Origin: a virus
Lineage: Duplodnaviria > Caudoviricetes
Virus record (IMG/VR): IMGVR_UViG_3300021091_000001
Coordinates: 32,001 to 96,000 of that record
Length of the DNA: 64,000 nt
Reading direction: 5' to 3' (one strand)
Every line of letters begins with the position of its first letter. Position 1 is the stretch's first letter. The position numbers and the translations under genes were made by a program. Below are positions 28,701-47,796 of the stretch, piece by piece. The notes beneath the pieces are model-generated. The model searched no databases. It worked only from the letters and a program-made list of their open reading frames with translations, and had not been told where the DNA came from.

Positions 28701-28754
28701 TAATATTTTAATTTTAATAAAATTATACTATATCAACTTTTGAAAAGGTTACCA

Positions 28755-29018
28755 ATGAGTAGACCCCTATGGTTTAATGATGCTTTATGTGTAGGAAAAA
28801 CTAATATGTTTTTTCCTCGTTACAACGAAAGACCTACCGCAAGAAAAAAGAGAGAACAGAAAGCAATACAAATATGTTTGTCTTGTCCTGTCAAAGAACC
28901 TTGTAGACAATATGCTAGAACACATTCTGAATATGGAGTTTGGGGAGCAGAGACAGAATACCAAAGACAGCTTGCTGGATATATCCCTGTTAAAATTTCT
29001 ATAAGGAACGTTTATTAA
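28755..29018 (+). CDS. whiB: WhiB-family transcription factor
   Basis: Cys pattern LC..MFF..IC..CPVKEPC and GVWGA turn. Confidence 0.88.
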   Translation: MSRPLWFNDALCVGKTNMFFPRYNERPTARKKREQKAIQICLSCPVKEPCRQYARTHSEYGVWGAETEYQRQLAGYIPVKISIRNVY

Positions 29019-33698: not shown

Positions 33699-34094
33699 TT
33701 GTATCCTGAAAAGATTCCCAATTCTTTGACACCTTTGAATACTTTCAAGTTCAACTTGGAATCTTCACGTGATGTTAAAAAACAACTAGAGTCTCAAATC
33801 GCAAGTCTCGATGAACGTATTGAAAAGATCGTTGATCATTTTACAATCCAAGACATGCCGATTATACGTTTTATTCTTAATGTTTCTGAAGAACGTGAAG
33901 AACTTAAAAAAGTTTCTAGGGCATTGGATAGAATAGCAGATCTTATTCACGTTAAAAATGAACTACTTCCAAAACTAGAGGTAATCAAAATAGCGGAAAA
34001 AGATCCCAATTGGTTTGCATGGACTTTTGGTGATTTTGATTCTGATATTGATTCTGAATTACAAAACTTTACGGACGGAAATTTTGATGACTGA
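33699..34094 (+). CDS. Coiled-coil hypothetical protein
   Basis: AGGAGG RBS, TTG start; overlaps the E2-like gene start. Confidence 0.7.
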   Translation: MYPEKIPNSLTPLNTFKFNLESSRDVKKQLESQIASLDERIEKIVDHFTIQDMPIIRFILNVSEEREELKKVSRALDRIADLIHVKNELLPKLEVIKIAEKDPNWFAWTFGDFDSDIDSELQNFTDGNFDD

Positions 34095-35907
34095 TAATTT
34101 TAATTATACTCTTCTTTCTAAAGAAGACGGCACTTATGCTCTTCGGTCTGTTGTAACTTCTTTTGGCCTTGACCATGTGACTGACAAAGATATTGTATCT
34201 TTTTATACTACTTTTTCTCAATATGCTTCTTTTGACACTGGTCTTTTGCCTTTAGATGGTACTGGCATTCTTGCCATTCGCAATGCTGGTCCACATACTC
34301 AAGTTGTTGCTCAACATGCTCCTGGATTGTATTATATAAATTGGGGTAGTTTTGAAGGCGACAAGCAAGCTAAGGCATACTATGTCGCTCAACCTTATCG
34401 CATAATTATTGGCGACTTTAGAGATGGTAATCTTTTAGGCGCTAGAATGTTTTATTCTCCTGTGCCAATCACCTCTCCTCAAAATCAGCTCTATCATGTT
34501 AACCTTCCCAATATTAATTGCAAAGGTTATCGCGGCAATGCTGTAGGCTGGATTTGTCTTTATCATAAAGATGATTGGTCTCATCTTCCATTTAACGAAA
34601 AAGTATCACGTTTCATTGAACGTTGTTCTGGCGTAGAAACATACAACGATGCAAATATGAACGAGACAGATGGTCCTCGTTTCTATGATTCTTGCGGATA
34701 TCCTTCTTATATTACTGATCCCGTTCTTTGGCAAAAGAAGTCAGAGGAAGAGGGATATCAATGGACTTTAGATTCTTCTGTTTGGATTCCAGTAAAAGTT
34801 ACTGGAATTGATAATCAGGGTTGCCATAATCCCAAAGGTGAATTACTCACTTTGGGAATGGCTATCTTGGGAAACTATCAAGCTTATTATACAGATACTG
34901 AAATCCCCAAGATGTACAATATTGTTTCTCGTCTTGATTTTACTGTTAAGAACGACAACATAGCTGACTTCTTTAAAAAGTCATTTGCTTCTGCTCCCTC
35001 TATTTGGTCTCACACCCCTAAAGATAATCCTTATGCTTTCACTGTAGAATCTAGAATCAATAATTCTTCAGAAACCCTTCAGTTGAATTTTAATTCTGAT
35101 GAAGAAGATCCCCATAAGGCTGTTTGCAATAATTGTGATGAGGTCTTTGACTATGAAGTAGCTACTATCGATGCGTACGATGAAACTATTTGTCCTAGTT
35201 GCATTAATGATCGTTATGTATACGTAGAATCTGTAGGTAAATATTTTCATTGTGAAGATGAAGATCTTTATTATTCAGAACATGATGATAACTACTACCA
35301 TTCTAAGCACGATGTTTGTTTTCATTGTCCAAATTGTATGGTCACTTATGGTTATTCAGGTACCAGTGAAAAAGCCGTTGAGTATATTCACAATTTAACT
35401 CGTAAAGACAATTATTCTGAATTAATTTGCGCAGTTTGTTTTGATCGAAATATTGAAGAAAATGATCTTTCTTCTACTGAATGTGTTGTATGTAAGAAGA
35501 AAGTTATTACATCTGTTGGATGGAATGATGTTCATCCTACTGTAAGAACCATTGATCATGATGTAGATTCAAATACTTATACTTCTACTTATTCTACATT
35601 TTGTGAAAGTTGTTCTCCTAAGCACTTTGTTTGTCCTTGCGGAAAAGTTAAGTCAGACGATACTGAAGATTTTAATTCTTGTAGTTCCAGTATGATTTAT
35701 TCTGAGTTAGATGCTAATAATAAACTTGTTTTTACGGCTTCTGTTCATCAGTGCTGTGCAAGTTGTCTTTCAGCGCCTATTCTCCAAGATGGAGAACTAG
35801 TAGCTGCTTATGTCCCACCTCCAGAAGTATTTAAGCTTGTCGTCAATAATAAATTGTTTAATTCTACTGGAATTACTGTTATTCAGTCAGAAGATGGTTT
35901 ATTCTGA
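34087..35907 (+). CDS. Prokaryotic E2-like (E2 family D/PRTRC protein B-like) protein with C-terminal CxxC repeats
   Basis: QLYHVNLPNIN..GWICL resembles the E2 HPNI..G.ICL active-site region (Cys codon 34555); several CxxC pairs after it; context. Confidence 0.7.
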   Translation: MTDNFNYTLLSKEDGTYALRSVVTSFGLDHVTDKDIVSFYTTFSQYASFDTGLLPLDGTGILAIRNAGPHTQVVAQHAPGLYYINWGSFEGDKQAKAYYVAQPYRIIIGDFRDGNLLGARMFYSPVPITSPQNQLYHVNLPNINCKGYRGNAVGWICLYHKDDWSHLPFNEKVSRFIERCSGVETYNDANMNETDGPRFYDSCGYPSYITDPVLWQKKSEEEGYQWTLDSSVWIPVKVTGIDNQGCHNPKGELLTLGMAILGNYQAYYTDTEIPKMYNIVSRLDFTVKNDNIADFFKKSFASAPSIWSHTPKDNPYAFTVESRINNSSETLQLNFNSDEEDPHKAVCNNCDEVFDYEVATIDAYDETICPSCINDRYVYVESVGKYFHCEDEDLYYSEHDDNYYHSKHDVCFHCPNCMVTYGYSGTSEKAVEYIHNLTRKDNYSELICAVCFDRNIEENDLSSTECVVCKKKVITSVGWNDVHPTVRTIDHDVDSNTYTSTYSTFCESCSPKHFVCPCGKVKSDDTEDFNSCSSSMIYSELDANNKLVFTASVHQCCASCLSAPILQDGELVAAYVPPPEVFKLVVNNKLFNSTGITVIQSEDGLF

Positions 35908-35930: not shown

Positions 35931-37625
35931 ATGACTAATCAACAAGAAACAACAAACGTCACCTTAAATGACCTTAATTATTTTTGGACTAAGTCTGGAG
36001 TTCCATGTTTTATGGCAACTCGAGACGATATTCAAGATGTAGTTCAGGCTCTTGGTTTTAATATTTATTATCTTATTTGCAATGTTGCGGAAGATAAAAA
36101 GAATGAAACCACAACTTATGTCAATGGTAAGAGTCAAACAACTACTTCTTATGTCACTAATATGAAGACCAAAATTGTCAAGGTTGTAAACAACTTTGTT
36201 GGTCATTCAATTACTGTTGTAGAAGATGAAGAAATTTATGATTTTACTCCAATACGTGAAATAGGCGAATATAATCTTCCTCCTATTCCTCGCGATATAG
36301 TTACTAAGCTCGATGAGTTCTTTAGACTTGTCGACGCACAGCATGGCACAGAGTCAATTGTCATATTGACCTTTGATCCTAATTTTGAAGATTCCCGTGG
36401 TTGGGGTGTTCTTGTTCCAGAACAGACAAATACTTCTGTTCACTGCAAGTACGACCCAGATAGCATTGTTGATCAAAAACCTGAGCATGTGATGATTGTT
36501 GGATCTGTTCACAGTCATCCCGGCATGCCTGCTTATGCATCTGGTACAGACCATGCTGATCAAGCAGATTTTGATGGCATTCATATTACTTATGGATGGC
36601 AGAAGTCTATTAATAACAATGCAACTCAATATCATATTGAGCTTCAAATGGCTGGATATTCTTGGACTCTTAAGCCAGATGATGTTTTTGAATCATTTGT
36701 TTACAATAAATCTCCCGATCCTCAGGTCGTAGAATGGAGCGAAAAAGTAAAAAAAGCATACCCCCCTCAGGGGGGTTCGGTTTCTCTAGTGGCTCACACA
36801 CCAGCACATTCGCTACATCAGACTCCTCCTCGGGACTTTATTCCAACTGGTATTACTAGTCCTTTATCAAAAGGAACTTCCACTTGGGAATCTACCAATT
36901 CTCCTCGTGTTTCTCAGTTTAATTCTCGTACTCAGAATTATCCTAACCCTCATGATGACGATGACCATATTGTCATAGCAGAAGTTCAAATTGAATCAGG
37001 CGGTTTTGCTTCATGTCCTTCTTGTAATTCTGAAGTGGCTTATTTTATTAATACTGTTCCATTTTACTGCGACGTTTGTGATATGCCTCTTTGTTTTCCT
37101 AATAACGCATATTCTGAGATAATTTCTTCTGCTGAAGAATATCTTAAAGAACGTAATCTTAAATCTAACTGCAATTATTATATTTGGACTAAAGATGATA
37201 ATGATGCAGATTTGTTAATGCGCATTAAAGAAAAAAATTACGTATCTGATTCTTCTGATTACATATCTTTAGACGCTCGTGTCGAAACTCTTGATGAATA
37301 TTATTACGAAGGTTTTTCTCACGAAAGATTAGTTTGTTGTGATCTTCCTATTGAAGAAATTTCTTATTGTACATGTTCTACTCCTGTTTATTATGATGAC
37401 GTCATTTCTTTTGATGTTGCTCATCCCCATAGTGTTTACGATTCAAACGATTCTTGTATAGAATGTGAATTCTATTACTCTAGGAATTGTAAGCCTTATC
37501 TACAAGCCATTGTAGATTTTGCGGCACGTGATCGTGTTATGGACGCTAAAATAACTGAGTGTGAGGACTTTATTCCGTATGAACGTTCTGCTGTCAAATA
37601 CGACTTCGACCGAGATTATTATTAA
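35931..37625 (+). CDS. JAB/MPN+ metallopeptidase (deubiquitinase-like) with Cys-rich C-terminus
   Basis: E(S)IVIL...GSVHSHP..AYASGTD (E..HxH..S..D JAMM motif). Confidence 0.88.
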   Translation: MTNQQETTNVTLNDLNYFWTKSGVPCFMATRDDIQDVVQALGFNIYYLICNVAEDKKNETTTYVNGKSQTTTSYVTNMKTKIVKVVNNFVGHSITVVEDEEIYDFTPIREIGEYNLPPIPRDIVTKLDEFFRLVDAQHGTESIVILTFDPNFEDSRGWGVLVPEQTNTSVHCKYDPDSIVDQKPEHVMIVGSVHSHPGMPAYASGTDHADQADFDGIHITYGWQKSINNNATQYHIELQMAGYSWTLKPDDVFESFVYNKSPDPQVVEWSEKVKKAYPPQGGSVSLVAHTPAHSLHQTPPRDFIPTGITSPLSKGTSTWESTNSPRVSQFNSRTQNYPNPHDDDDHIVIAEVQIESGGFASCPSCNSEVAYFINTVPFYCDVCDMPLCFPNNAYSEIISSAEEYLKERNLKSNCNYYIWTKDDNDADLLMRIKEKNYVSDSSDYISLDARVETLDEYYYEGFSHERLVCCDLPIEEISYCTCSTPVYYDDVISFDVAHPHSVYDSNDSCIECEFYYSRNCKPYLQAIVDFAARDRVMDAKITECEDFIPYERSAVKYDFDRDYY

Positions 37626-37645: not shown

Positions 37646-38392
37646 ATGGAAACTAAAAGAGTTGTATTGGTTGGAGCCGGAGGCATAGGCACTTGGCTTG
37701 CTCCTGGTGTTGTTCGTTTACTTGAGTGGAAGTATCCTGGTTCTGCTTTTATTATCGTCGATGGTGACAATTTTGAGCAGAAAAATTTAGAGCGTCAGTC
37801 TTTTACACAAATGGGAAACAAGGCTTCTGTTAAAGCATTAGAACTTTCTTCTCAGTTTACAAATACTCTTGTTATTCCAGTCCCTAAATGGGTTGTTTCT
37901 GACGATCATCCAGAGACAGATGATAATTCTAACAAGATCAAAGCTTCTCAACTTCTTGTTGAAGGAGATATTGTTCTTGCTGTTGTTGACAATTTTTCTG
38001 CACGTAAAATTCTTTTTGACGCTGCATCTAAATTAGACAACGTTGATGTTTTAACTGGTGGAAATGATGACGCTTTATATGGAAGTATTTATCATTACCG
38101 TCGTAGAAATGGTATAGACATTACTTCTCATCCAGTTGAAACACACCCAGAATACCAGAATCCGCCGGATCGTAATCCCGGTGAGATGTCTTGTCAGGAG
38201 CGAGCAGAAATAGAAGGTGGCACTCAGATTCTTGCCACTAATATGGCTGTTGCTTCTTATATTCTTGGTCGAATACAACACACTATAGTGTTCGACCAAA
38301 ATCCAGAACAGTCCGAGATTTATTTTGATCTAGGGCTTGGCATGGCACAACCCTACAACCGTATGGTTGAAAACGCATCACTTAATGTATAG
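37646..38392 (+). CDS. ThiF/E1-like ubiquitin-activating enzyme
   Basis: VLVGAGGIG, DGD.FE.KNL.RQ, NKA, AVVDN..AR; candidate catalytic Cys in SCQE; no zinc CxxC pairs. Confidence 0.9.
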   Translation: METKRVVLVGAGGIGTWLAPGVVRLLEWKYPGSAFIIVDGDNFEQKNLERQSFTQMGNKASVKALELSSQFTNTLVIPVPKWVVSDDHPETDDNSNKIKASQLLVEGDIVLAVVDNFSARKILFDAASKLDNVDVLTGGNDDALYGSIYHYRRRNGIDITSHPVETHPEYQNPPDRNPGEMSCQERAEIEGGTQILATNMAVASYILGRIQHTIVFDQNPEQSEIYFDLGLGMAQPYNRMVENASLNV

Positions 38393-38403
38393 GAGAAATC
38401 AAA

Positions 38404-38655
38404 ATGGAAATGAATTCCATGCAGAACAATACAAATGCAGCACAGGGCGTAGCTAATCTTCGCTATGGTGTTTACAACCAGCCAGCTCCAGTTTCTGGCA
38501 AGACTGTTGGCGAAGTTCGTCAGCAGTTCTCCAAGCTTTGGGGAATCAGCGCAGACGCCATTGCCTACAAGGGCAAAGACAAGCTTGACGAAAATTATAT
38601 CATTCAGCCCGGCGATAACGTTGAATTCCATCGCCGTGCTGGTGAAAAGGGCTGA
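38404..38655 (+). CDS. Ubiquitin-like (beta-grasp) protein ending in Gly
   Basis: 83 aa, GKTVGEVR..LDENYIIQPGDNVEFHRRAGEKG*; AGGAG RBS; directly after E1. Confidence 0.82.
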   Translation: MEMNSMQNNTNAAQGVANLRYGVYNQPAPVSGKTVGEVRQQFSKLWGISADAIAYKGKDKLDENYIIQPGDNVEFHRRAGEKG

Positions 38656-38804: not shown

Positions 38805-40406
38805 ATGCTCCACCAACAAATCCAACTTGGTATTCCTGCCATATGGATTAAAACTACAGACCCTTTCCGTATAGAAGAAAATATTTTATCTATTTCAAAA
38901 AGAGATTTTTTTTCTATAACAAAGGATGGTTTTTCACATTATTCTGATAATGTTTGGAAACCCATTCTAGTATCTATTTCTAACCCTGAAGATTCTTCTT
39001 CTCCAATAATTAAAACGACCACAGATTTTTCTGTGTCTTTTGATTTTCTTTTTAATTCTCCTGACTTTAAAGATCGTCCAAAAACGTTTATTAACCACCT
39101 AGTTAGTGATCCAAATTCTTTTGCAATGATGTTTGCTCCTTTTATTGCAAATCTTCATTCTGATTATCGCAATTCTTTTAAAAAAGACGATCTTTCTTTA
39201 CTTCCTCTTCAAATAATTGTCATATCTTCTGCCAATCCTCCAGAAGACATTGCTCATCTTTTCTATGTTCACGAAGATACTTATCCTTCTTTGGAAGAAC
39301 TTACTGATATTCTCTATCATATGCATTCTTCTACAAATGGAGAAATAGTAGATTCTGCCAAAACAAAAGATATAGCTCGTTCTGGTCTTGGTTTAACAGA
39401 GTCTAAGTTTATTAACTTGTCTTTGCTTTCTGTTTTAGAATGCGGAACTATCGATTCTGCTTACATTTATTCTGCTAAAATGGCAGATGTCAAAAAGAAT
39501 GGCATTCTTGAAATTCTTAAGCCTAAAATAACATTTGATAATATTGGCGGTCTTGATAACATTAAGAATGTTATTTTTAAAAATCTTTATTTTTGGAATA
39601 ATCCCCAAGAAGCTGAAAAATTTGGTATTCAACCAATAAGACGTTTGCTTACCGTTGGTATTCCTGGCACTGGTAAGTCTGCCATTTGCGAAGCAACTGC
39701 AAATGCTTTAGGTCTAGATCTCGCTCGCACTGGTGTCAGTCAAGTAATGAATTCTTTCATTGGCCAGTCAGAAGCTAATATGCGAGCAGTTTTTCAGCAG
39801 ATAAAAGCAATGGCTCCACTTTGCGTTTGGATTGACGAGTTCGGTCGTGATATGTCTGGTGGCCAGTCGTCTAGTCACGTAGACGGTGGCACCACAGACC
39901 GTGTTCACGGCGAGTTCTTGACAGGCTTGCAGGAACTTCCTGACAATGTCTTTTTGATGTGTGCTGCAAATCAACTCAATCACCTTAGGCCAGAGATGCT
40001 TCGCGCAGAACGCTTTGATAAGATTTTCTTTGTTGGTTTGCCTTCATTTGAAGAGCGAATTGAAATTATCAAAATTTATCTTCCGGAAAATAATTATGAT
40101 TATCAAGCCGTTGCTCATGCTACCAAGTATTTTACTGGTGCAGAAATTAAATCTCTTATCAAAGAAGTGAACTTTAATGTAGTATCTACTTATCATCGCT
40201 CTGTTACTGATAAGGATATTATTTCTTACGCTCCTAGCATAAGGAATATTCTTTGGAATAAAGAACGCGACATGATTAAAGAGTTATATCGCTACGCCTA
40301 TGAGAACTGGGATTGGGCTTCTAATTTCCAATACAATGAAATAGATGATATACTTGGTAAAGCTCCAGCAAAGTCACAAGTTTCGTCTTGGGACGTAAAG
40401 ATATAA
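38805..40406 (+). CDS. AAA+ ATPase (Ycf46/SpoVK/Cdc48-like), degenerate N-terminal module
   Basis: IGGLDNIK, GIPGTGKS, VWIDE, AAN..LRPEMLRAERFD. Confidence 0.92.
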   Translation: MLHQQIQLGIPAIWIKTTDPFRIEENILSISKRDFFSITKDGFSHYSDNVWKPILVSISNPEDSSSPIIKTTTDFSVSFDFLFNSPDFKDRPKTFINHLVSDPNSFAMMFAPFIANLHSDYRNSFKKDDLSLLPLQIIVISSANPPEDIAHLFYVHEDTYPSLEELTDILYHMHSSTNGEIVDSAKTKDIARSGLGLTESKFINLSLLSVLECGTIDSAYIYSAKMADVKKNGILEILKPKITFDNIGGLDNIKNVIFKNLYFWNNPQEAEKFGIQPIRRLLTVGIPGTGKSAICEATANALGLDLARTGVSQVMNSFIGQSEANMRAVFQQIKAMAPLCVWIDEFGRDMSGGQSSSHVDGGTTDRVHGEFLTGLQELPDNVFLMCAANQLNHLRPEMLRAERFDKIFFVGLPSFEERIEIIKIYLPENNYDYQAVAHATKYFTGAEIKSLIKEVNFNVVSTYHRSVTDKDIISYAPSIRNILWNKERDMIKELYRYAYENWDWASNFQYNEIDDILGKAPAKSQVSSWDVKI

Positions 40407-41608: not shown

Positions 41609-42250
41609 ATGATATCTATATCTAATTTTTCTGACACTCCATATATCACTAATCACATTAATGATATATTTGACAATATGGATGATTCTTTATATCCCCT
41701 TAATGCTTATTTTGCACATTTTTTTCGGATTAAAGATCTTAACTCACTAAAATCAGTTCTTTCTCATACTCCTAGTTCTCAGTTTACTGTAGAAACATAT
41801 AGATCATTAGAATCTAATCTTCTTTCTATCGAAAGAGAACTTGCTTATATTTATATTAAAACTACTTTTTTTGATTCAGATAGAATGTATTTTTATCTAG
41901 GTTCTAAGAATTCTTTCAAACTAAATTATTTTTCTGATTTTTTACCCAGTGCTTTTAATCATCTTTTTAATCATTGGATTCACAATAGTTTTGTTAAAGT
42001 AATGGGCCCTGGACACGGTTCTTATATAGTATTTGATCTTTCAAAGCCTTTTACTCTTCCTACTGTAGAATCATCTTCTTTTCAAGATAGTATAACTTCC
42101 TTCATAAACTCATACAACCAAATGAAAAGTGACAATCAGTATCTTACTGAATTGAATTCTTACAAAGATGGAGTTATACATTCTCTTCAGTTGAAGATTG
42201 AAGAATTACAAAATCAAAATTTTATAACATCTCAAATCACTTGGAGATAA
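41609..42250 (+). CDS. Hypothetical protein, C-terminal coiled coil
   Basis: GGAG RBS. Confidence 0.75.
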   Translation: MISISNFSDTPYITNHINDIFDNMDDSLYPLNAYFAHFFRIKDLNSLKSVLSHTPSSQFTVETYRSLESNLLSIERELAYIYIKTTFFDSDRMYFYLGSKNSFKLNYFSDFLPSAFNHLFNHWIHNSFVKVMGPGHGSYIVFDLSKPFTLPTVESSSFQDSITSFINSYNQMKSDNQYLTELNSYKDGVIHSLQLKIEELQNQNFITSQITWR

Positions 42251-42251
42251 T

Positions 42252-42803
42252 ATGGATACTACTTCTTATACTGATTCTCAAGCAGCTGTTCTCGCCGCTC
42301 AGTTCCCAATTGTTTGCAAATATTATTCTAATAATATTCCTTTAAATCCTAGTTCTCATTATCAGTATGCCAACAACCCTGGCATACGTTGTTGTTCTAG
42401 TTCTCAACGTTTAGCAGTTGCTTCTCCAACAAAACCTCCTTTATTTTGTGATATGTCTCCTGTCACAATGTCTACCTGCATATTTTATTCTTCTGATTTT
42501 AAAATTCTTAAAAAGATTAAAGCTTCAAATCAGACAGTTTATTTCATGACTCGTTATAGAACTGAGCAAGAGTCTTATATTTATAAGCTTTATGGCGAAG
42601 ATGCTGTTGTGTATCTTGAGTTAAATTACTCTGATATTAAATCTATCGATGATAATATCGATACAGAAGCTATTAGAGTATTTGAAGATTTTATTGTTAA
42701 TGAACTTGGTTTTACTTTTGATCTTCAAGAAATTGATGAAGAATGTCTTGATCGCAAGCTACAAAATACAACCAATTCATTTTTTAAAGCAATTTTAACC
42801 TAG
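42252..42803 (+). CDS. Cys-containing hypothetical protein
   Basis: Coupled to the upstream ORF; five Cys in the N-terminal half. Confidence 0.75.
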   Translation: MDTTSYTDSQAAVLAAQFPIVCKYYSNNIPLNPSSHYQYANNPGIRCCSSSQRLAVASPTKPPLFCDMSPVTMSTCIFYSSDFKILKKIKASNQTVYFMTRYRTEQESYIYKLYGEDAVVYLELNYSDIKSIDDNIDTEAIRVFEDFIVNELGFTFDLQEIDEECLDRKLQNTTNSFFKAILT

Positions 42804-42812
42804 GATTATTTT

Positions 42813-43994
42813 ATGATCTATGACTATAATTTGTTTACTCCAGAAAATGTTTTTACCTTAACTCTTCGCGGAAATCCTCAGTTTATAGAATCATCTATGG
42901 TTGCCAAGTATACTTGTTCTATATACGACATGAAAAAAAGATATGATTCTTTGCATCCTTCCATGACACTTCGGGATCAAGACCATCTGTATCCTTTAGC
43001 TGTTAGGTATATATCTCCTATGCGAGACTTCTACGTCATAGAACGTCCTCCGTTTCTTTTGGATGAGGTAGATTTTTCTACAGCTAAATCTTACAGGCAA
43101 AGAAAAACTCCGAAACTACTCAATAATAGATCTATTTGGATTCCTTGGACTATTGCCATTATTGCCATAAGAAATGGCGTGTATTCTTTTTATCTGTTTT
43201 TCAATGATGGTCCGCTTCAATCTATAGACGATAAGATTGTTTCAGCTTATCTTCCCAACATTGGCCATGGCGGCCAAGTATGTATGGGCCAAGATTCCAG
43301 TACAGCAATGGATAAATTTCAAGAAACACTTTCTGTTACAGAAATGTATAAGTCTTTGTTTAACATGTATTTTTCTGGTTGGAACACTGACATTTGGAAT
43401 TCTAGTTACAATATCAAATATTTTGATGATAACGGTATTCTTAAGAGAATTCAGTCTCTTAAATCATCTCCTAAAGATTTTTACGAAATTTTAGTGTATG
43501 GTCGATCTAGTGTTGCTAAGTATTTTAAATCTTTTTTGTTTCTTCTTTCTCATCTTACTTTACAAGAACATTTAGATTATGTTACTCATATTAAAAACAA
43601 TTCTCATAATGTTTTCAAGTTGTCTAAAGTTATTTCTCAACAACTTCCTGGTGGTTTAATTCTAGAGGAAGTTATTGTCAGAAAAATAGACAGATCTTTT
43701 TCCAAACAACAAATTGGTTATACAAATAGTCTTTTTTCTGAACATTTTGAATCTAGTCAAGTATCTAAAAGCATAACTCTTTATGTGAATAATATCCCAT
43801 TTTTTGATGGCCAACCGCCTTTGCGATACGATAATGATAAAGTTTATTCTATGGTTAGCGATCCTAAAGCAATTGCTGAGATTTATCAGCAGATGATGGC
43901 TCAATACAAAAATTCTGATTCTTCCTTTGTTCAAAACATTCATATGAATTATTCTGATCTTCACAGCGTTGTTGTTCAAGAAGGAGCGTTATGA
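42813..43994 (+). CDS. E2-like (family D) paralog 2
   Basis: WIPWTIAII..FFNDGPL..YLPNIGHGGQVCMG (Cys codon 43281)..FSGWNTD. Confidence 0.62.
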   Translation: MIYDYNLFTPENVFTLTLRGNPQFIESSMVAKYTCSIYDMKKRYDSLHPSMTLRDQDHLYPLAVRYISPMRDFYVIERPPFLLDEVDFSTAKSYRQRKTPKLLNNRSIWIPWTIAIIAIRNGVYSFYLFFNDGPLQSIDDKIVSAYLPNIGHGGQVCMGQDSSTAMDKFQETLSVTEMYKSLFNMYFSGWNTDIWNSSYNIKYFDDNGILKRIQSLKSSPKDFYEILVYGRSSVAKYFKSFLFLLSHLTLQEHLDYVTHIKNNSHNVFKLSKVISQQLPGGLILEEVIVRKIDRSFSKQQIGYTNSLFSEHFESSQVSKSITLYVNNIPFFDGQPPLRYDNDKVYSMVSDPKAIAEIYQQMMAQYKNSDSSFVQNIHMNYSDLHSVVVQEGAL

Positions 43995-45217
43995 TAACCC
44001 CATCTACTTACATTTTTGCTGACGATATCTCTTATCCATATGCAGAACTAACTACTGGCAATACAAATCTACAATACTCTTATGCTAATACTCAACGTTC
44101 TGAAGCTTCTAGGTTCATGAATTTAAAGTTAAGTAGCAATTATTCTATCAAAGAATCTACAATTTCTTATGAAAACGATTCTTACATTGATATATTTGAC
44201 GACTATCTTTCCATACTCAATACAGAGAACCAATATAATGACTTGATATTTCCTGGTTTAAGATACGCTTCTGAGGGAATATTAATCTTTGAAAGACCTC
44301 CTACTTACAAAGTTTTAGACATTAGTAGAGACTATCAGGCGAACATAAATTCTCATACTTTGCAATCGGAATATTATTTGCCAATTCCTTGGCAGGTATA
44401 CATTGCAATGTACAATCCTGCAACCATGCGACTAGTTGCAGTAAAAATGTTTTTTACATCTACTTCATTGTTTGATTTTAATCAAGCTGTTTTTGCTCCT
44501 CCTTTGTATAATTTTTATTCTAACGGAATGTTATGTAGACCATTCTTTGAGTCTATAGACGATATTGAGAAATATCCTAAAACATATTCTGGCGTTATTG
44601 CTTCTGCTTACGATTGGATCTGGAACAGTGGTTTCAACTTTGATATTACTGAAAATATTTCTCAATTTCTTCAAAGCAAAAATTTCTATTCTTTTGAACC
44701 ATATTTGACAAGCGCTTCTGCTAAAGCTTCTTACCATCTACTTGTTAATAATCCCATTCATGCAATTCTCAACAGATTAGATTTTATCTATGCTAAGAAT
44801 TTCTACAATTGTTGGCAGAATATAGCTCTTAAAGATATTTCTTCTGTTTCTTGGTCACCATATACATATTCGGATTTTTATTATCAAGAGCGAGATACTA
44901 TTTCTGACTATGCACTAGATATTTATTTGGATCAAACAGGAAACTCTTATTGTTCCTGTGACTGTGAGAGTTGTTTAGAATACTCGCAATGTTGTACTGA
45001 CGAAGATAATCTTCATCTTTCGGATATACATCATGACCCTTTATACATTAAAATTGTTGACAATTTAGTGAATAAAGATCCTAAACCTCTTCAAAAAGCT
45101 TATAAAGATTCTGTTTTGTTTTTAGCAAAAAACAAGATTTCTATGAAAAGTGCTTTTAAATCTAAGTCTTATGAAGTTTTTGCTAAAATGTCTGAAAAAA
45201 TACAGATTACTTCTTGA
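43991..45217 (+). CDS. E2-like (family D) paralog 3
   Basis: PIPWQVYIA..KMFF..PPLYNFYSNGMLC (Cys codon 44534)..WNSGFNFD. Confidence 0.62.
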   Translation: MITPSTYIFADDISYPYAELTTGNTNLQYSYANTQRSEASRFMNLKLSSNYSIKESTISYENDSYIDIFDDYLSILNTENQYNDLIFPGLRYASEGILIFERPPTYKVLDISRDYQANINSHTLQSEYYLPIPWQVYIAMYNPATMRLVAVKMFFTSTSLFDFNQAVFAPPLYNFYSNGMLCRPFFESIDDIEKYPKTYSGVIASAYDWIWNSGFNFDITENISQFLQSKNFYSFEPYLTSASAKASYHLLVNNPIHAILNRLDFIYAKNFYNCWQNIALKDISSVSWSPYTYSDFYYQERDTISDYALDIYLDQTGNSYCSCDCESCLEYSQCCTDEDNLHLSDIHHDPLYIKIVDNLVNKDPKPLQKAYKDSVLFLAKNKISMKSAFKSKSYEVFAKMSEKIQITS

Positions 45218-45274
45218 TTTTTATATACCTTTTTGGTATTATATATAATATAAACTTTAAAAAAGGTATTTAAA

Positions 45275-45589
45275 ATGTCTAAGACAAAGGCTATTCAGCC
45301 TACTTTCAATAGATCAGAAGTTGCTAAAATACTTAACGTTTCAACATTAACGATAGCTAACAGAGAAAAAAATAAAAAGTATCCAAATCCTAAGAGAGAT
45401 CTTAATAACTATCGTTTATATACTATTAATGACGTTTTGAATTTGCAACTTATCACATATAATCATGTAGATCCAAAGCCTATTATTTCTGTTCTTTACG
45501 ATAAAGGATACAGAGACTCAAAGCATCTAGCTCAAATCATCGATGATGCGCTATCAAACAGAGTGAGTTCAAATGCCAACAGAAAATGA
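45275..45589 (+). CDS. MerR-like HTH DNA-binding protein
   Basis: RSEVAKILNVSTLTIANRE...RDLNNYRLYT..DV. Confidence 0.8.
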   Translation: MSKTKAIQPTFNRSEVAKILNVSTLTIANREKNKKYPNPKRDLNNYRLYTINDVLNLQLITYNHVDPKPIISVLYDKGYRDSKHLAQIIDDALSNRVSSNANRK

Positions 45590-47359: not shown

Positions 47360-47796
47360 CCTATTTATACTCTATAGATATACTAGATTCACTAGACTCC
47401 TCTTATTATGAGGAGGAGTCTAGTGAATTTTTAGTTTTTTATCAGCTGTATAAAGACTGGACAGTTTATGACTCTTATCAGATTCATCCTGAAATAGTTT
47501 TAACTCTTACTGAAAACTTCATAAACTTTCATGGTAAAATAGATTTTCCTGATGATATACCCATTAAAGAGGGCTATTGGACGACAGTTCCTTTGGGTAT
47601 ATTTAGGTATAGAATGCTTGCTGATGGTTCTTCTTACATTGTCGAAAATTCTTCTAAAGAAGGATATATTGTTGAGGGAATGTATTGGAGTAACGGTTTT
47701 TTCTATCGTGTTAAAGACAAAGAAAAAACAATTCAGTTAAAATTATTTGTTGATTCCACTACAAGGTATTACCATTCTTATCCTTATCCGCTATAA
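47356..47796 (+). CDS. Hypothetical protein
   Basis: ATGA overlap. Confidence 0.7.
   Translation: MTYLYSIDILDSLDSSYYEEESSEFLVFYQLYKDWTVYDSYQIHPEIVLTLTENFINFHGKIDFPDDIPIKEGYWTTVPLGIFRYRMLADGSSYIVENSSKEGYIVEGMYWSNGFFYRVKDKEKTIQLKLFVDSTTRYYHSYPYPL

Follow-up and report, generated by a model that had tools for sequence, protein, structure and literature searches.

Two adjacent genes of a lake-water phage with a genome of about 202 kb, which are called E2b and E2c here, most likely encode divergent proteins with the ubiquitin-conjugating (UBC) fold belonging to the Prok-E2_D/PRTRC-B lineage. On balance, we favor the view that both proteins conjugate a ubiquitin-like protein (Ubl) and are charged by the single E1 of the phage, their variable domains picking the targets and a heterodimer between them being possible. 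The genes were analyzed in a window of 64,000 nucleotides corresponding to bases 32001-96000 of a complete virus record of 202,043 bp with direct terminal repeats (IMG/VR record IMGVR_UViG_3300021091_000001); unless otherwise stated, the coordinates given below are those of the window. The preliminary description of this DNA, which was made from the sequence alone, had placed two adjacent open reading frames (ORFs) at 42813-43994 and 43991-45217, and these coordinates were found to be right. The two genes and their predicted active sites are as follows:

42813-43994, + strand: E2b (P0001), 393 aa; its UBC-like core (residues ~55-215) follows an N-terminal beta domain and precedes a helical C-terminal domain that is variable
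43991-45217, + strand: E2c (P0002), 408 aa; its UBC-like core (residues ~80-236) is flanked by a variable N-terminus and by a helical C-terminal domain that is also variable
43257-43283, + strand: predicted active-site stretch of E2b, N149-C157 (LPNIGHGGQVC), invariant in 58/58 E2b-type sequences
44510-44536, + strand: predicted active-site stretch of E2c, N174-C182 (LYNFYSNGMLC), with the N present in 217/217 and the C in 216/217 E2c-type sequences; it aligns with the Cys of E2b

The motifs to which the preliminary description had drawn attention ([IP]W..I, an FF strand, PN/YN...C with the Cys retained, and W/F-N-x-D) are all present in both proteins: IPWTIAII, YLFFND and GWNTD in E2b, and IPWQVYIA, KMFFTS and GFNFD in E2c. 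The amino acid sequences of E2b and E2c matched each other by BLASTP with E 1e-3, and the comparison of the E2b family (37 sequences) with the E2c family (55 sequences) using hhalign gave 97.5% (E 8e-12), with the Cys residues aligned. The stop codon of E2b and the start codon of E2c overlap in the sequence ATGA, and GGAG is located 7 nt upstream. E2b and E2c are most likely a translationally coupled pair originating from an ancient duplication. The conserved core consists of ERPP, PW, the Asn, the Cys eight residues further on, and then N-x-D; in 51 sequences from both families, eight columns were found to be invariant (E77, P80, P111, W112, N149, C157, N191, and D193 in the numbering of E2b). 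The Asn is present in 275/275 homologues and the Cys in 274/275. The Asn-to-Cys spacing, which is 8 in E2b, E2c and the nine PRTRC-B sequences aligned, is the same as that of the HPN...Cys motif of E2 enzymes. The His of the HPN motif is absent in both proteins, which carry LPN (E2b) and LYN (E2c). The Asn-Cys stretch of E2b was also aligned to YHPNVDENGQIC of UBE2L6, which includes the HPN...Cys motif, with an E of 0.15 that is not significant alone.

AlphaFold2 models of the two proteins were obtained with a mean pLDDT of 81 (E2b) and 84 (E2c). A UBC-like alpha/beta core composed of an N-terminal helix, a four-strand meander and helices past the active-site loop is present in both models, and E2 enzymes dominated the results of an all-against-all structural search. 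In the AlphaFold DB (AFDB), both models matched clusters named 'PRTRC system protein B' and 'UBC core domain' with a probability of 1.0 and E down to 8e-8; in the ESM Atlas, Prok-E2_D clusters were retrieved by shape in the case of E2b (TM 0.60 by hit) and by features in that of E2c. No match at E 0.001 or better was obtained when the whole models were compared with the PDB using Foldseek, probably because the models are multi-domain, and a PDB sequence search with the single proteins E2b and E2c gave nothing meaningful. Judging from these models, E2b and E2c have an E2/UBC-like fold, as the preliminary description had supposed. The resemblance to E2 enzymes is extremely unlikely to be due to chance or to a modelling artefact concealing an unrelated fold, since Pfam, the two controlled profile-profile comparisons described below, AFDB, Atlas, and VIA-align all put the invariant Asn and Cys at the E2 catalytic positions.

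Prok-E2_D was the only recurring Pfam match: it was obtained with 9/37 E2b-type and 30/55 E2c-type sequences, always under the cut-off. E2b scored 16.7 bits versus a cut-off of 25, and E2c scored 13.3 bits in the genome scan; no match to E2c at E 0.1 or better was obtained with hmmscan. Neither protein matched any of the NCBIfam models (including TIGR03737 PRTRC_B), and no PHROGs family was found for either of them. In the profile-profile comparisons, nine annotated PRTRC-B proteins were aligned for reference, a canonical cassette (order ParB-E-C-F-B-A-ThiF) was fetched from a Cupriavidus plasmid, and five neighboring genes (four between the AAA+ gene and E2b, and one after E2c) were used as the hhalign control. 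The core of E2b/E2c matched PRTRC-B over 114 columns (86.2%, E 4.9e-6), with the Asn and the Cys aligned, and gp214 of the Bacillus cereus phage vB_BceM_WH1 (94.6%, E 7e-8); gp214 itself matched PRTRC-B at 62%. The five neighboring genes did not exceed 1.2% with any of the E2 profiles and were rejected as further E2-like proteins. The two genes directly preceding E2b (213 and 183 aa) were likewise rejected: they gave at most 0.5% with hhalign and did not match any family.

The residue H188, located past the Cys of PRTRC-B (T-H-P-N), is invariant in the nine PRTRC-B sequences. Since the match between the core and PRTRC-B in hhalign stops just before this position, the corresponding residue was identified by eye: it is a Gly in 54/58 E2b-type sequences (S-G-W-N) and in 193/217 E2c-type sequences (S-G-F-N). 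The preliminary description had named Prok-E2_D as the family to be compared, and this proposal proved partly right: E2b and E2c are homologous to Prok-E2_D/PRTRC-B, but they score under the curated cut-off. Because this cut-off is missed and the His of PRTRC-B is replaced, E2b and E2c are regarded here as a new phage-restricted sister family and not as members of Prok-E2_D/PRTRC-B.

The other genes which may contribute to conjugation are located upstream of the pair:

34087-35907, + strand: E2Zn, 606 aa, the third E2-like protein and the most divergent one, rich in Cys in its C-terminal half; its gene opens the conjugation block
35931-37625, + strand: JAB/MPN peptidase, 564 aa (Prok-JAB, 28 bits, above the cut-off)
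37646-38392, + strand: ThiF-type E1, 248 aa (ThiF, E 4e-11)
38404-38655, + strand: putative Ubl tag, 83 aa, ending in ...GEKG, with a conserved C-terminal Gly
38805-40406, + strand: AAA+ ATPase, 533 aa (AAA, E 2e-23)
41609-42803, + strand: two genes encoding proteins of 213 and 183 aa with no family match, directly upstream of E2b

In the case of E2Zn, the longest ORF opens at a TTG codon at 34015, while the database record and all the homologues start at the ATG at 34087. The preliminary description had announced one E1, one Ubl and three E2s, with the pair lying 2.4 kb downstream of the operon. The latter distance is that between the stop of the AAA+ gene at 40406 and position 42813. Six-frame searches of the complete genome agreed with the gene count: a single ThiF, a single Prok-JAB and a single copy of the putative Ubl, without any paralogue, were detected, and the E2 core profile gave exactly three matches (E2b, E2c, and E2Zn). 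The match to E2Zn, the only one other than the pair in the whole genome, had an E of 8.5e-5. The resemblance to the protein encoded at 34087, which had also been proposed, is real but weaker than that between E2b and E2c: the core matches the E2Zn family at 86% (E 5e-6), with LPN and the Cys aligned on either side of a 7-residue insert. However, E2b and E2c do not derive from the operon E2. The E2Zn family gave only 0.4% with PRTRC-B and 0.2% with gp214 in hhalign, and because PRTRC-B and gp214 match the E2b/E2c core and not E2Zn, the profiles designate E2b and E2c as the more canonical E2-like genes of the phage and E2Zn as the outlier.

The single E1 and the putative Ubl show the residues which conjugation would involve. 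The lone Cys of the E1, C183, and its Gly-rich loop are kept in 24/24 orthologues, and the C-terminal Gly of the Ubl is conserved in the 25/25 sequences compared. Past this Gly, a tail of two residues (SL or NI) is present in three relatives, in which it would need trimming. The 83-aa protein did not receive any family name from the library searches. In the three-step scheme that we infer, the ThiF-type E1 would adenylate the C-terminal Gly of the Ubl, which Cys183 may hold as an intermediate; the Ubl would then be handed over to E2b and E2c, forming a thioester with Cys157 and Cys182, respectively; and each E2 would lastly transfer it onto lysines of its own targets. Since no E3 is evident, the variable flanks might serve as built-in substrate receptors. 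E2b and E2c may pair up as a heterodimer. Trimming or removal of the tag would fall to the JAB peptidase, and the tagged proteins could be substrates of the AAA+ ATPase and a nearby HslV-like protease.

The conservation of the Cys also bears on the question as to whether E2b and E2c might be non-catalytic or regulatory partners, as UEV/Mms2 and RWD proteins are, which would bind the charged E2Zn, the Ubl or substrates while their own Cys remained uncharged. This arrangement would account for the E2-like protein already present beside JAB and E1; it would also resemble the E2-UEV pairs, given the coupling of E2b with E2c, and weak matches between the models and RWD-bearing RBR ligases were found in the AlphaFold DB search. 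UEV and RWD domains are not known to keep the catalytic Cys, however, and the loss expected of such pseudo-E2s is not seen in this family: of the 275 homologues, 274 retain the Cys and all retain the Asn, although the overall identity drops below 30%. In addition, E2b and E2c are nearer than E2Zn to the single E2 of simpler cassettes. We therefore regard a purely non-catalytic role as decidedly unlikely.

Relatives of the pair are numerous: a search of 1.84 billion proteins with the core profile gave 1,344 clusters (50% identity), the best 150 of which were listed. The homologues have been found so far only on phage-like contigs. No match was obtained in deposited phage genomes (n=50,697) by performing tblastn with E2b, nor was any relative detected by a pattern scan with the E2c family in species-representative bacterial and archaeal genomes (n=185,579). 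The synteny was analyzed in 35 IMG/VR loci and several others, in which the identity of E2c ranges down to 28%. All the contigs examined share the gene order E2Zn-JAB-E1-Ubl-AAA-205-127-(213)-(183)-E2b-E2c-104-80-SSB-UDG...HslV-like, and the profiles place an E2b-type gene ahead of the E2c-type gene in each locus that extends far enough. The pair comes after the E1 block in all of the 40-odd related loci analyzed. In 31 distinct IMG/VR and metagenome loci, the pair never occurs without the E1/Ubl/JAB block where the contig reaches it.

The rate of divergence of these genes was expressed as the median identity to the proteins of the window across the 31 distinct loci. The slow genes are those of the E1 (71%), the Ubl (71%) and p104 (72%); the HslV-like (63%), s205 (60%) and AAA+ (56%) genes are intermediate; and E2c (36%), E2b (32%), s183 (32%) and s213 (26%) are fast. 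The pair thus shows about half the identity of the E1 and the Ubl. Across the family, identity is 46-58% in the cores of E2b and E2c, as compared with 16-23% in the domains on either side. An active site that stays frozen between fast domains is as expected for enzymes with changing partners or targets, and at the sequence level the fast flanking domains are consistent with substrate diversification. The four fast genes (213 aa, 183 aa, E2b, and E2c) form an island at 41609-45217 inside the slow block, and the 213- and 183-aa genes may work with the E2 pair.

The speed at which the pair and the two genes preceding it diverge (26-36% identity, versus 71% in the case of the E1) is also typical of host-interacting proteins, and E2b and E2c might be cysteine enzymes built on an E2 scaffold and acting on a substrate other than the phage Ubl. 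They might be counter-defence decoys or traps for a host modifier or a host E1/E2 pathway, or might carry out some other thiol-dependent reaction tied to the neighboring DNA-metabolism genes: four genes part the pair from the conjugation block, MerR-like, SSB and UDG genes follow it, and the conserved His of PRTRC-B is absent. The presence of the E1/Ubl/JAB block in those of the 31 loci whose contig reaches it argues against this possibility, as does the fact that no host-encoded partner has been seen. A WhiB-family gene is present at 28740-29018 (51 bits, above the cut-off), and WhiB also occurs in the relatives; because of these genes, the host is probably an actinobacterium, and Actinobacteria tag proteins with Pup and are not known to use a ubiquitin-fold tag. 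We consider a substrate other than the phage Ubl rather unlikely. A second, weak WhiB-like match was observed elsewhere in the genome (G000 112608-112733).

Several points weigh against E2b and E2c being conjugating enzymes charged by this E1. We know of no biochemical evidence for any protein of the Prok-E2_D/PRTRC type. The thresholds of Pfam and NCBIfam are missed, and with a Gly in place of the His of PRTRC-B, the proteins may differ from it in their chemistry. Between the pair and the conjugation block lie 2.4 kb and four genes, the other neighbors of the pair are DNA-metabolism genes (MerR-like, SSB, and UDG), and the operon already holds an E2-like protein of its own beside JAB and E1. 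As evidence of a functional link, the conserved synteny is weak because all the examples come from one phage clade with a frozen gene order. In favor of conjugation, no terminator-like site with a strong stem was found between the AAA+ gene and E2c, where only a few weak terminators were predicted. No RNA records are listed for 42252-45589, which has no bearing on expression.

An extended form of the conjugation mechanism would be a ubiquitin-proteasome-like pathway of the phage, in which one E1 and one Ubl would feed three substrate-specific E2s; the fast-evolving pair, possibly as a heterodimer working with no E3, would select particular host or phage proteins for tagging by means of its variable domains, and the AAA+ unfoldase and the HslV-like protease would process them. 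We regard this pathway as unlikely; if it existed, it would be a case of E2 diversification for target choice in a bacterial virus, independent of eukaryotes.

The prokaryotic E1/E2/Ubl systems studied so far, which are Bil, the Bub operons (PDB 9eav) and CBASS Cap2, serve for host defence and have only one E2 or an E1-E2 fusion. The present system differs from them in that it is encoded by a phage, includes three E2-like genes and shows no detectable sequence similarity to them. As regards eukaryotic E2s (such as UBE2S, UbcH5, UbcH7, and UBE2L6), E2b and E2c are about 10% identical to them; they lack the HPN His, differ in the N-x-D segment and carry large appended domains, and no RING/HECT partner is evident. 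Literature searches brought up no account of phage cassettes carrying more than one E2-like gene.

Operons in which a Ubl and a JAB are encoded along with an E1-like protein and only one E2-like protein were predicted by Iyer, Burroughs and Aravind (2006; PMC1779556), and the HPN His is also missing from the E2-like protein of operon type '6d' (PMC1779556), which appears to be PRTRC-B/Prok-E2_D (PF14460, TIGR03737). PRTRC-B shares with E2b and E2c the UBC-like core, the P-x-x-N followed by the Cys at +8 (with C-x-G next in E2b), the absence of the HPN His and an F-x-S-x-F...N segment after the Cys; it is also encoded with a small ThiF-type E1, a JAB and a small tag protein ending in Gly. Unlike what occurs in PRTRC cassettes, the E1, JAB and tag genes of the phage lie 4-7 kb upstream of the pair, on the same strand and not adjacent to it, in all the related loci. 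PRTRC-B has about 240 aa, whereas E2b and E2c have about 400 and possess extra N- and C-terminal domains. The element here is a phage and not a plasmid or an integrative and conjugative element, and it has two copies and a third E2-like gene. PRTRC ParB, E and F did not match in NCBIfam among the nearby genes scanned, ParB not having been searched for in the whole genome, and of the four genes lying between the AAA+ gene and E2b, three had no NCBIfam match at all. The helical C-terminal domains were also considered as a possible equivalent of PRTRC protein F, which was rejected, PRTRC-F showing no similarity to E2b or E2c.

The nearest named relative of the E2b/E2c core is gp214 of vB_BceM_WH1 (241 aa, annotated as hypothetical), with which it shares the N...C and N-x-D motifs. 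This phage is also a jumbo phage, and in its genome (LC597490, L061 3156-9933), gp213 (509 aa) and gp214 are followed by gp215 (a weak Prok-JAB match), gp216 (ThiF), and then NADAR and Band 7 genes, gp214 being directly upstream of the JAB-like gene. It differs in having a single short E2-like gene, without any tandem pair or long flanks, and a Firmicute host. A similar ThiF was observed in Bacillus phage Edson.

A clade of phages of about 200 kb, probably growing on Actinobacteria, therefore keeps three E2-like genes per one E1 and one Ubl. The E2b/E2c family is large and confined to phages so far, and its catalytic residues are frozen while its flanks change fast; the phage may be able to tag targets of several kinds. 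If the enzymes are active, ubiquitin-style tagging would serve these phages for attack or for self-regulation, and target choice would be built into diversified E2s and not into E3s. The related cassette gp213-216 makes this chemistry testable in vB_BceM_WH1, a cultured and tractable relative.

Some other features of the proteins and the region were observed. A dense Cys cluster, CSCDCESCLEYSQCC, occurs in the C-terminal domain of E2c (44948-44992, residues 320-334); it was rejected as a zinc finger since it is unconserved in the family consensus and the confidence of the model is lower there. The best plasmid match to the phage E1, with 31% identity, is a ThiF gene of the Butyrivibrio hungatei plasmid pNP144 (L047 5974-6705), where it is located among Rad52, helicase, DNA polymerase III delta and SSB genes, with no PRTRC cassette; this record may be a phage-plasmid. 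From 10 to 52 kb, the window has a low G+C content, carries nearly all its genes on one strand and contains scattered tRNA genes. A perfect 20-bp stem-loop with a T-run behind it, at 47385-47430, is the region's strongest terminator-like site; it lies past the UDG cluster and immediately ahead of the tRNA-Arg gene.

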